From: an uncultured delta proteobacterium
Lineage (GTDB): Bacteria > Desulfobacterota > Syntrophia > Syntrophales > UBA8958
Reading direction: 5' to 3'
Assembly: GCA_903885795.1 (NCBI GenBank)
Contig: CAISJV010000007.1
Coordinates: 75,455-139,454 of the forward strand
DNA: 64,000 bases
The position numbers were made by a program, and so were the translations under genes. A model generated the notes under the pieces. It was not told the DNA's origin. It was given only the letters and a program-made list of their open reading frames with translations, and ran no database searches. Below, one piece after another: positions 17,332-18,945 of this stretch (its first letter is position 1; every line of letters begins with the position of its first letter).

Positions 17332-18945
17332 ATGAAGACAATCCGCCCGCCCTATACCATTCTCGCATTAGGTCCCTTCAGCCCCGTCCCGGAGACGGGA
17401 TTTTCCGTGAATATCATCCCCGTGGAGACTCCGACCTTCCAGGAGGCTTTTGGTCAACTGGCCCCTCGGCTCTGGATTCCGGCGCCTGCGGACATCTGCC
17501 CGCCCGGAGGTCTGACCCTGCAACCGTCCGTTCTAAAAGATCTGACCCCGGACGGCCTGATACGGACGATACCTTATCTCAAGGATCTTTACGACGCAGG
17601 GGAATTCGTTGCCAGGGGCTACGCCAGCGGCGCCGCTCCGGCTGATATCGCCGCCCAGGTACAATCCACCTGGCCCCATCTTCCCCTGGACCTTTCCATC
17701 CCCACAGTAACTGCGCAGCAGGCAACCCGCCACGACAGCGCTGTCGACGACATTCTCTCTATGGTGGCCATGCCCGGTGGATCAGATCAGGGAGGATCAA
17801 GAAACTCCGGAGGTCCCGCGGACTGGAAAAGGAAAATTGATGACCTCCTGTCGGCAAATATCGCCGCTATCTTCATCAATGAAGAATTCCGGGCGTTTGA
17901 ATCTGCCTGGCGGGGAGCGGAGTGCCTCTTCCGCCGGGGCGGCGTCGGGGAAGAAAGTGGTAAGATCGTATTGAAAATCGCCCCGGTCTCAACGACGAGC
18001 CTTCCTGAGGCCCTGGAATCCCTGGCGATCGAACTTGCGGCGAATACCCCCGACCTCATCCTCATCGACCTGCCCATGGACAACACCCCCGGCGGCGTCG
18101 CAACGCTGGAAAGAATCGCCGCCCTTGCGACAACGCTGCTTATCCCGACGGCGACATGGATCACCCCCTCTTTTTTCCATCTGGATAACTGGCGTGAGTT
18201 GCACCGGTTAGCCTATCTCAAACACCATCTGGACGACGCCGTCTATGCCAAGTGGCGAAAACTCAGAGAACAACCGTCAGGACAATGGCTGACCCTGACC
18301 TGCAACCGTTTTCTTACCAGAGCACCCTATGGGGAAAACAACCGCCCCCGTTCCGTTGCCTTCACGGAGAAGGAACCCCTGTGGATTAGCCCGGTATGGG
18401 CGCTGGGAACCCTGGCCGCGCAGAGCGTCAGCCAGTTTGGCTGGCCCTCGCGCCTGACCGACTATATGCGCGTGCGCATTAAGGATCTTGCCGTGTATGT
18501 CAACGAGGATGAAGCAGCTTCGGCTACGGAGACGACATTCCCGGACGACCGGATCCGGCAGTTTGTGGAAATCGGCGTCACGCCCCTATCGGGAGTCCCA
18601 GGGCAGGACACGGCCTTCATGCCCAAGGCAGCCGTCGCCTCCGGCGAATCTCTCCTTTCCCAGATGTTCCTTTCCCGGATCATCGGCTTTCTGATCAGGC
18701 TGCGGGATGCTTATGAGGAAAGCGACAGGGAAACGGAACCGGTGAGTTTCGTCACCGAGGCCCTGATGGCCTTTTTTGAAGCAACGGGACAGGAACCACC
18801 GGACGACCTGTATGTAACCAAGGGCGCCAACCCTGAAGGACACCAGCAGGAAGAAGCGTCAACCCCGGCCCTGGATATTTCCTTAACCCCTCCGAAGGCG
18901 GTTTCCCCGGATTCCCGGAAAATGGCCTTTACCTTTTCCTGGTAA
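17332..18945 (+). CDS. divergent contractile-sheath-like protein: TssB(VipA)-like N-terminus fused to a shortened TssC(VipB)-like body (537 aa)
   Basis: LKDLTPDGLIRTIPYLKDLYD resembles the TssB motif (D)F.P..v...vP.L..Ll.lR. EEFRAFESAWRGAECLF resembles the TssC motif FQ.LEa.WRGL.yLv. YAKWRKLREQPSGQWLTLTCNRFLTRAPYG resembles the TssC motif Y..Wr.lR....sryvgL..PRfLlR.PYg. Confidence 0.6.
   Translation: MKTIRPPYTILALGPFSPVPETGFSVNIIPVETPTFQEAFGQLAPRLWIPAPADICPPGGLTLQPSVLKDLTPDGLIRTIPYLKDLYDAGEFVARGYASGAAPADIAAQVQSTWPHLPLDLSIPTVTAQQATRHDSAVDDILSMVAMPGGSDQGGSRNSGGPADWKRKIDDLLSANIAAIFINEEFRAFESAWRGAECLFRRGGVGEESGKIVLKIAPVSTTSLPEALESLAIELAANTPDLILIDLPMDNTPGGVATLERIAALATTLLIPTATWITPSFFHLDNWRELHRLAYLKHHLDDAVYAKWRKLREQPSGQWLTLTCNRFLTRAPYGENNRPRSVAFTEKEPLWISPVWALGTLAAQSVSQFGWPSRLTDYMRVRIKDLAVYVNEDEAASATETTFPDDRIRQFVEIGVTPLSGVPGQDTAFMPKAAVASGESLLSQMFLSRIIGFLIRLRDAYEESDRETEPVSFVTEALMAFFEATGQEPPDDLYVTKGANPEGHQQEEASTPALDISLTPPKAVSPDSRKMAFTFSW

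Follow-up and report, generated by a model that had tools for sequence, protein, structure and literature searches.

The 64,000-nucleotide stretch of DNA analysed here (the window; contig CAISJV010000007.1 of assembly GCA_903885795.1, from an uncultured delta proteobacterium of the Syntrophales) carries a gene whose 537-aa product is a natural single-chain fusion of the two type VI secretion system (T6SS) sheath subunits, with a TssB-like (VipA) segment followed by a TssC-like (VipB) part. Related loci place this gene beside complete T6SS operons that have a tssB and a tssC of their own, and the product is very probably an accessory paralogue of the T6SS sheath. The fuller reading that we favour, and for which we judge the case evenly balanced, is that of a conserved single-chain paralogue of the sheath heterodimer that is accessory to a canonical T6SS rather than its main sheath, that works with a conserved 258-aa partner (p258 hereafter), and that probably occupies a special low-copy position. 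Such a real, conserved accessory sheath paralogue has apparently not been described so far.

A natural fusion of TssB- and TssC-like sequences

The sole Pfam match in the fused protein is PF05943 (the VipB N-terminal domain), on residues 168–430 (E 1.8e-33, with 116 bits where the cut-off is 27), and a phmmer search of PDB sequences returned VipB/TssC chains (E 2.5e-17). The NCBIfam equivalog model for TssC, TIGR03355, gives the protein 92.6 bits, below its cut-off of 271.5. When the profile of the family was aligned by hhalign with a canonical TssC of 495 aa, fused residues 144–492 paired with TssC 51–442 (E 5e-25), and alignment with a canonical TssB of 165 aa paired fused residues 4–95 with TssB 27–128 (probability 95.8%, E 6.8e-9). 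The query sequence alone has no match to PF05591 (T6SS_VipA) even at E ≤ 1; 33 of 60 family members scanned singly do match it (best E 6.9e-14), and all 60 match PF05943. Neither the query nor any of the 60 matches PF18945, the Pfam model of the VipB C-terminal domain (VipB_2). These boundaries bear out a first, sequence-only reading of the locus, which had proposed a compact TssB–TssC fusion with TssB-like segments at its N-terminus; the peptide strings quoted in that reading are all present in the product. The protein differs from TssC proper, which is a separate polypeptide, in that the TssB-like segment is part of the same chain.

The open reading frame (ORF) begins at the first possible start codon past an in-frame stop, so that no upstream N-terminal extension is hidden and the short N-terminus of the protein is not an artefact of annotation. 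A weak to modest AAGGA lies 8 nt 5' of the ATG, and the upstream gene on the same strand ends 11 bp before the fused gene.

Parts of the sheath protomer kept and lost

An AlphaFold2 (AF2) model built on an alignment of 60 homologues has a predicted local distance difference test score (pLDDT) of 89.2 and a predicted template-modelling score of 0.88; a single-sequence model (pLDDT 36) was set aside. Low confidence is confined to residues 127–135, 146–158 and 504–508, with pLDDT below 50 in the first two of these stretches. The best Foldseek matches of the model are TssC/VipB chains (E 3.5e-19 to 1e-13), among them Myxococcus xanthus 5URX (5urx_1B, E 3.5e-19) and Vibrio cholerae 3J9G (E 1.2e-18), with template-modelling scores to the target of 0.65–0.70. 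Phage sheaths and those of extracellular contractile injection systems (eCIS) match far more weakly, the eCIS sheath/baseplate entries 6RAO, 9QGL and 9GTP appearing at E 1e-4 to 1e-6. The model predicts that the protein has both domain 1 and domain 2 of the sheath fold, with TssB-core strands at residues 8–14, 29–31, 47–50 and 60–63 and the first domain-3 helix at 81–98.

Which parts of the protomer have been kept is best judged against the Pseudomonas aeruginosa sheath, in which the domain-1 handshake sheet combines the TssC hairpin β11–12 with the C-terminal β13 of the TssC that comes next along the protofilament, and also takes in the N-terminal β1 of a TssB from the neighbouring protofilament of the same disc, while in domain 2 strands β2–3 of TssB are interleaved with TssC strands (PMC5807055). 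The handshake interaction is described as responsible for tube formation in the solved T6SS sheaths (PMC5807055). In the AF2 model of the fused protein, strands 494–497 and 513–518 form what looks like the acceptor hairpin and residues 531–536 a terminal strand, and the topology of the three parallels that of the canonical TssC C-terminus. The final residue is W in 57 of the 60 members, with F at −5 in 45 and at −3 in 49, and the resulting C-terminal consensus [LI]EFTFxW resembles S-F-T-L-S-L (β13) of the canonical TssC encoded in the same loci.

TssB residues 1–26, which include the N-terminal donor strand β1, have no counterpart in the fused protein, since the profile alignment opens at TssB 27. 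The query starts 7 residues ahead of the first core strand, and a motif search over the 60 aligned members puts that strand only 6–11 residues from the N-terminus in 47, the motif not being found in the other 13; the co-resident canonical TssB proteins begin MAKEGSVAPKERVNIVYRP... Equally without counterpart are the C-terminal helices of TssB (TssB ~129–165, about 37 aa), the alignment stopping at TssB 128, and hhalign detected no resemblance between the junction and the TssB C-terminus (E 0.1). TssC residues ~1–50 fall outside the full-length profile alignment, which opens at TssC 51. In place of these helices and of TssC ~1–50 the fused protein has a junction of one helix and a disordered linker, and there are internal deletions relative to canonical TssB and TssC. 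The sequence-only reading had asked whether the ClpV-binding and recycling domain was lost; most of the outer recycling region is indeed missing, with the TssB C-terminal helices and, by the profile alignment, about 50 N-terminal TssC residues gone.

Within the linker lies a conserved motif of the family form S-x-V-D-D-I-L-S-M-V-A-x-P-G, in which L142 is invariant and D139, M144, V145 and A146 are at least 90% conserved. A sub-alignment hhalign comparison with the canonical SLLDEIVQAT helix recognised by ClpV gave a weak match (E 0.0038, probability only 8.7%). As a tentative lead from sequence comparison, the motif may descend from the N-terminal helix by which TssC binds ClpV (canonical SLLDEIVQATRLKP).

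The fused gene recurs in several phyla and is under purifying selection

A word-index database search returned 125 homologues from metagenome-assembled genomes of Syntrophales and other 'Deltaproteobacteria', nearly all of 480–560 aa, covering the whole query and having the same architecture; public annotation names them 'contractile sheath large subunit'. An exhaustive HMMER scan covering 1.84 billion representatives gave 129 clusters (defined at 50% identity) at E ≤ 1e-30 and 514 at E ≤ 1e-10. The family occurs in Thermodesulfobacteriota, Acidobacteriota and Myxococcota, all hosts being uncultured; the hosts of the 41 loci taken from species-representative genomes belong to the Syntrophales, Syntrophorhabdaceae, Desulfovibrionales, Desulfobacterales, Acidobacteriota and Myxococcota. 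No family member was found on the plasmids of PLSDB, where the 543 matching records are ordinary TssC of ~25% identity and none covers 80% or more of the query. Two plasmid candidates were examined and rejected as fusions: an unannotated match on a Cupriavidus plasmid is a normal tssB and tssC pair, and a Rhizobium plasmid cluster has a single tssC.

The fused gene is under purifying selection. Measured against orthologues of 84% and 81% identity, the ratio of nonsynonymous to synonymous substitution rates (dN/dS) is 0.25 overall, with values of 0.20–0.22 for the TssB-like part, 0.19–0.22 for the linker and 0.24 for the TssC core. From the low TssC equivalog score and the missing VipB_2 match one might have suspected a duplicate in decay, or a join of tssB to tssC made in error during annotation or assembly. 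This explanation is effectively refuted: the ORF is intact in more than 100 sequence clusters drawn from many independent assemblies, dN/dS stays at about 0.25 in every major segment, and a recent mis-join is contradicted by an identity of just ~20% between the fused protein and the TssC encoded in the same loci.

Among the weaker matches we recognised a second class of fusions (P0263, P0250, P0245, P0242, P0248, P0257 and P0258; loci L048, L050 and L051). These proteins have 560–636 aa, match both VipA and VipB above the Pfam thresholds and have no VipB_2 match; P0263 also passes the TIGR03355 cut-off for TssC. They span the TssB profile to about position 150 of 155, have a longer linker with the motif LDxLLxMV, similar to that of the shorter fusions, and in some cases possess an N-terminal arm. 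Their genes lie near VgrG/PAAR genes and near FHA, PP2C and kinase genes, and one comes from a planctomycetote (phylum Planctomycetota). In a crude neighbour-joining tree of both fused classes and canonical TssC, made without support values and used just to place the shorter class, the 520–540-aa proteins form a clade of their own and the long class lies nearer canonical TssC. At L050 the class-2 gene follows a VgrG gene, a gene for a 402-aa PAAR protein, four genes for large proteins without Pfam matches (952, 506, 288 and 803 aa) and DcrB, and precedes FHA/SLT, PP2C and Ser/Thr kinase genes and two CsgG-like genes; no separate tssB or tssC is visible in the 22 kb of this locus.

The fused gene accompanies complete T6SS operons in related loci

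To the 41 loci, which were gathered by a search with a 15-sequence alignment, we added others from assemblies and searched all of them by tblastn for a canonical set of genes. At least 13 related loci have the fused gene adjacent to a complete canonical operon with separate tssB, tssC, hcp, tssE, tssF, tssG and clpV. In eight of these (L013, L021, L022, L023, L024, L028, L033 and L040) it is on the same strand and directly follows tssB-tssC-hcp-tssE-tssF-tssG-clpV, and in the other five (L006, L019, L020, L031 and L037) it is divergent from p258-clpV-tssG-tssF-tssE-hcp-tssC-tssB. The Pfam annotation of L006 illustrates the arrangement, with a 165-aa VipA, a 495-aa VipB with VipB_2, Hcp, a gp25-like TssE, TssF, TssG and ClpV beside the fused gene. 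The co-resident canonical proteins are of ordinary size (TssB 161–167 aa, TssC 491–504 aa). VgrG, Tvp or PAAR-like genes lie within 10 kb of the fused gene in about 20 further loci. Linkage to T6SS core or spike genes is thus conserved across taxa, as is expected of a T6SS-associated (Tag-type) gene.

Since a complete tss operon adjoins it, the fused gene is an addition to the canonical set, and its product replaces neither the sheath nor TssA. A role as a substitute for TssA was considered and rejected, for in L022 a TssA gene (ImpA_N and VasJ domains; TIGR03362, 275 bits) lies upstream of tssB. The same 13 loci decide most of what the sequence-only reading had said of the gene's standing. 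It had called the gene an orphan, which does not hold in view of these operons, and had offered two identities for the product: a minimised sheath protomer, which as a stand-alone sheath is contradicted by the separate tssB and tssC, and a repurposed sheath-fold protein, which is the best fit. It had also named a circumstance that would weaken its case, namely a normal tssBC pair together with a truncated, non-expressed copy; the pair does exist in related loci, but the copy is not decaying, with its dN/dS of ~0.25 and its presence in several phyla.

These loci also bear on the idea of a self-sufficient minimised sheath that polymerises alone around a tube and powers a contractile device of its own. 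Completeness of sheath-fold domains 1 and 2 in one chain would suit such a device, some loci do carry the fused gene without core genes nearby, and the sheaths of phages, pyocins and eCIS are single-chain and need no recycling domain (PMC5807055). We nevertheless regard it as improbable, because the full canonical tssBC pair co-occurs in at least 13 loci, no second set of hcp, tssE, tssF or tssG stands alongside, and the lateral donor strand β1 of the tube-forming handshake, whose role is known from the P. aeruginosa sheath (PMC5807055), is absent.

The window itself shows the fused gene apart from this context. Pfam scans of its longest non-nested ORFs and tblastn with the canonical gene set found no tssA, tssB, tssC, hcp, tssE, tssF, tssG, tssK, tssL, tssM or clpV in the whole 64 kb, which agrees with, and widens, the earlier observation that no tssB, hcp, tssE or clpV lies beside the gene. 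In the clade to which it belongs (L007–L012, 81–84% identity) the block from the fused gene onward is separated from the core genes. The ancestral order appears to have been ...clpV - fused - p258 - vgrG - tvp - paar. The three VgrG modules of the window would imply that a T6SS is encoded elsewhere in that genome.

A possible place at an end of the sheath

In our favoured reading of an accessory paralogue the structural inventory suggests where the protein might act. Because the acceptor hairpin and the C-terminal donor strand are kept, the fused protein would probably plug into the canonical sheath or TssE along a protofilament. Because it is without the TssB β1 that stitches protofilaments together within a disc, and without most of the outer recycling region, it could not propagate the normal mesh, and a special low-copy position, in a terminal ring, at the baseplate or at the distal end, is therefore the most likely. 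In the T6SS sheath the two linkers of each subunit go to the ring nearer the baseplate, with TssE as the presumed acceptor for the first ring; in the V. cholerae sheath no assignment of the distal end was possible, and sheath subunits arranged in another way may make it up (PMC5813253).

We therefore picture a protomer with a retained acceptor hairpin and a retained, canonical β13-like donor strand that would form a terminal ring and there act as an adaptor or a seed, or modulate how the sheath assembles or contracts. Such a ring would be either the connection from the first sheath disc to TssE and to the spike-loaded baseplate or a layer at the distal end, and could so set the start or the stop of contraction, with p258 as the partner of the end-positioned protein. 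The linkage of the fused gene to spike genes mildly favours the baseplate end. That the protein physically co-assembles with the canonical sheath or baseplate seems to us, from sequence-level comparison, to fall just short of an even chance. The most specific version, in which a dedicated non-propagating subunit makes up one defined ring at an end of the canonical sheath with p258 as partner, is offered tentatively and lies on the doubtful side.

Several observations weigh against this reading of the protein as a sheath-associated subunit. The window lacks every core gene, as described above, and at L026, L043, L045, L048 and L052 there is no tss core gene, VgrG/Tvp gene or PAAR-like gene near the fused gene in the DNA that was fetched. 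Linkage to vgrG/Tvp spike modules is at least as strong as linkage to sheath genes and fits a spike-related role too. The last 47 codons of the fused gene are its least constrained part (dN/dS 0.5–0.8, from few sites). The idea of a terminal ring needs further determinants, since a free acceptor hairpin alone would not stop polymerisation.

Some of the same observations would suit a non-structural regulator, chaperone or adaptor, whose sheath fold binds a T6SS partner outside the lattice. Its tasks, shared with p258, might be to load the VgrG-Tvp-PAAR spike or make it more stable, to keep hold of free TssB/TssC, or to contact ClpV by way of the conserved VDDILSMVA helix. The tightest and widest linkage is indeed to p258 and vgrG/Tvp, even where core genes are far off (in the window and at L001, L002, L004, L007 and L008), the short and highly conserved helix motif in a disordered linker has the look of a docking peptide, and the TssB donor strand required for lattice formation is absent. 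We consider this explanation unlikely all the same, for conservation of the acceptor hairpin and of a canonical-like C-terminal donor strand down to the final residue is difficult to account for unless strands are exchanged with a sheath-type partner, and the searches with p258 turned up no known chaperone, adaptor or T6SS protein that resembles it.

The partner p258, the spike modules and other neighbours

In about 25 loci the gene for p258 is no more than about 2.5 kb away from the fused gene. It is found between clpV and vgrG in canonical clusters, and in homologous form (31% identity, E 4e-47) follows the 636-aa class-2 fusion P0263; the L048 copy is at 3659–4465. The protein has no match in Pfam, NCBIfam, PADLOC or PDB sequences, and hhalign comparisons with TssE, Hcp, TssG, TssB, TssC and the fused family revealed no relationship. 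Viewed by eye only, its N-terminal half has the look of a flavodoxin/TIR-like alpha/beta domain. PADLOC, searched for anti-phage defence genes, gave no match to the fused protein, to p258 or to the channel gene upstream.

Table 1. Coordinates in the window of the fused gene, its segments and its neighbours
Feature	Position	Strand	Basis or content
Fused TssB-TssC-like gene, whole ORF including stop	17332..18945	+	537 aa
TssB-like segment, residues 4–95 (domain-2 core strands and first domain-3 helix)	17341..17616	+	hhalign; PF05591 in relatives
Junction, residues 96–165 (helix 103–113 and low-confidence linker)	17617..17826	+	AF2; alignment limits
Conserved linker motif S-A-V-D-D-I-L-S-M-V-A-M-P-G-G, residues 135–149	17734..17778	+	Family conservation
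TssC/VipB N-terminal domain, residues 168–430	17833..18621	+	PF05943
Reduced C-terminal region, residues 431–537 (two helices, strands 494–497 and 513–518, terminal strand)	18622..18942	+	AF2
C-terminal donor-strand-like motif K-M-A-F-T-F-S-W	18922..18942	+	Family consensus [LI]-E-F-T-F-x-W
p258, conserved 258-aa partner gene	19048..19824	+	Recurrent linkage; strong AAGGAGG ribosome-binding site
Spike module 3	19908..27243	+	vgrG 19908–22595, DUF2169-pentapeptide 22614–25130, pentapeptide 25127–26215, DUF3540 26208–26834, PAAR-like 26848–27243
Spike module 2	8462..15795	-	DUF3540 15139–15795, PAAR-like 14725–15120, vgrG 11860–14676, DUF2169-pentapeptide 9292–11841, pentapeptide 8462–9295
Spike module 1	3..8244	-	vgrG 5998–8244, DUF2169-pentapeptide (1306 aa) 2040–5960, pentapeptide 982–2043, DUF3540 314–946, PAAR-like 3–224 (cut by window edge)
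GluR0-like gene (periplasmic-binding and ligand-gated ion-channel domains)	16157..17320	+	PF00497, PF00060, PF10613

The placement of the fused gene among spike modules, noted from the sequence at the outset, is confirmed by Pfam, with VgrG, DUF2169, pentapeptide, DUF3540 and PAAR-like genes on either side (Table 1). A Class III Tvp accessory system made up of TvpAB, TvpB, TvpC and Paar was recently defined in Serratia (PMC13373197), and all three modules of the window match its composition: VgrG, TvpAB (DUF2169-pentapeptide), TvpB (pentapeptide), TvpC (DUF3540) and a DUF4150/PAAR-like protein. The three stand within 27 kb, in which no recognisable toxin or immunity genes were seen; the gene order of module 2 is permuted (DUF3540, PAAR-like, vgrG, DUF2169-pentapeptide, pentapeptide), and the DUF2169-pentapeptide protein of module 1 is unusually long.

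The GluR0-like gene immediately upstream of the fused gene keeps this adjacency in the Syntrophus clade (L007, L008, L010 and L011). At L004 it is present as a version with the binding domain only, and at L014 two copies lie downstream. It may provide a sensory input to the T6SS module, or its position may be mere synteny. Directly after spike module 3 is a gene for an HTH_25 and AMIN protein (27240–28286, minus strand), and another AMIN-domain protein is encoded near the fused gene of L006 (4378–5496), so this may be a recurrent neighbour. At L005 a 98-aa protein (9703–9999) with a weak DUF3467 match (E 2.4e-4, under the Pfam cut-off) is encoded between a PAAR-like gene and the gene for a 484-aa fused homologue, which is followed by a STAS-domain gene. 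Farther off in the window, two large ORFs on the minus strand (36977–38515 and 55703–58201; 512 and 832 aa) match nothing in Pfam at E ≤ 0.1. Phosphate-related genes, seemingly unrelated to the fusion, are concentrated at 38852–42997, 47258–50996 and 60246–61906; they comprise two genes for PBP_like_2 binding proteins, pstC/A-like permeases, an ABC ATPase, PhoU, a PhoU_div/PHO4 transporter pair and two-component systems.

Significance and comparison with known systems

The T6SS sheath is treated as a homopolymer of one TssB/TssC heterodimer, and the composition of its ends is unsettled. With one donor strand and the acceptor site retained and the lateral donor strand lost, the conserved paralogue suggests itself as a candidate for a subunit that is specific to an end or has a modulatory role, and makes the question testable. 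It also demonstrates in nature that TssB and TssC can be joined in the B-C order, which is useful for engineering, and it brings along p258 as a second conserved protein without a known family. The two belong to an accessory module, so far undescribed, of T6SS clusters found in uncultured bacteria that are anaerobic and largely syntrophic, and T6SS activity in such hosts may bear on interspecies partnerships. The 8 million full texts that were searched yielded no natural TssB–TssC fusion or sheath paralogue, only fusions to green fluorescent protein (GFP) or unrelated 'sheath' papers, in agreement with the sequence-only reading, whose author knew of no such fusion.

In eCIS, the extra sheath paralogues Afp3/Afp4 and Pvc3/Pvc4 sit close to the baseplate, in set layers of a sheath that is otherwise a homopolymer. 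They differ from the fusion in belonging to another lineage of contractile injection systems and in being single-chain by ancestry. To our knowledge no specialised sheath paralogue of the Afp3/Afp4 type has been described for a T6SS, and an end-ring role of the fused protein, if true, would be the first T6SS counterpart of these eCIS proteins.

With canonical TssB/TssC (VipA/VipB; 3J9G, 5MXN, 5URX and 5N8N) the fused protein shares homologous sequence, the fold, interleaved TssB strands, the acceptor hairpin and the C-terminal donor strand. It is unlike them in being one chain rather than two, in coexisting with the normal pair, and in lacking the TssB β1 arm (about 26 aa), the TssB C-terminal helices, TssC ~1–50 and PF18945. 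The nearest precedent, as judged from its description, is Agrobacterium tumefaciens TssC40/ImpD, a second TssC homologue beside TssC41 that is reported to be non-redundant and needed for Hcp secretion (PMC3702570). Like the fusion, it is a second, divergent TssC-like protein in a cluster with a TssB–TssC pair; unlike the fusion, it is not reported as joined to TssB, and its gene lies inside an alphaproteobacterial imp operon rather than by clpV/vgrG (PMC3702570). The 'firing coordinators' of the T6SS (the TssA classes, TsmA/TagA, TsmB/TagB and TagJ) are products of accessory genes that act on the assembly, stability or recycling of the sheath, and an August 2026 review of T6SS accessory factors has no sheath-fold entry (PMC13584744). 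They resemble the fusion in being accessory components of T6SS clusters and differ from it in that none has a sheath fold (PMC13584744).

The class-2 fusions are like the window protein in their TssB-then-TssC order, in the linker motif, in having no VipB_2 match and in the p258 homologue that follows P0263. They are unlike it in keeping nearly the whole TssB profile, in their longer linker and in their much higher scores against TssC models. The window protein looks like a more reduced form of this wider, undescribed group of single-chain TssBC proteins.

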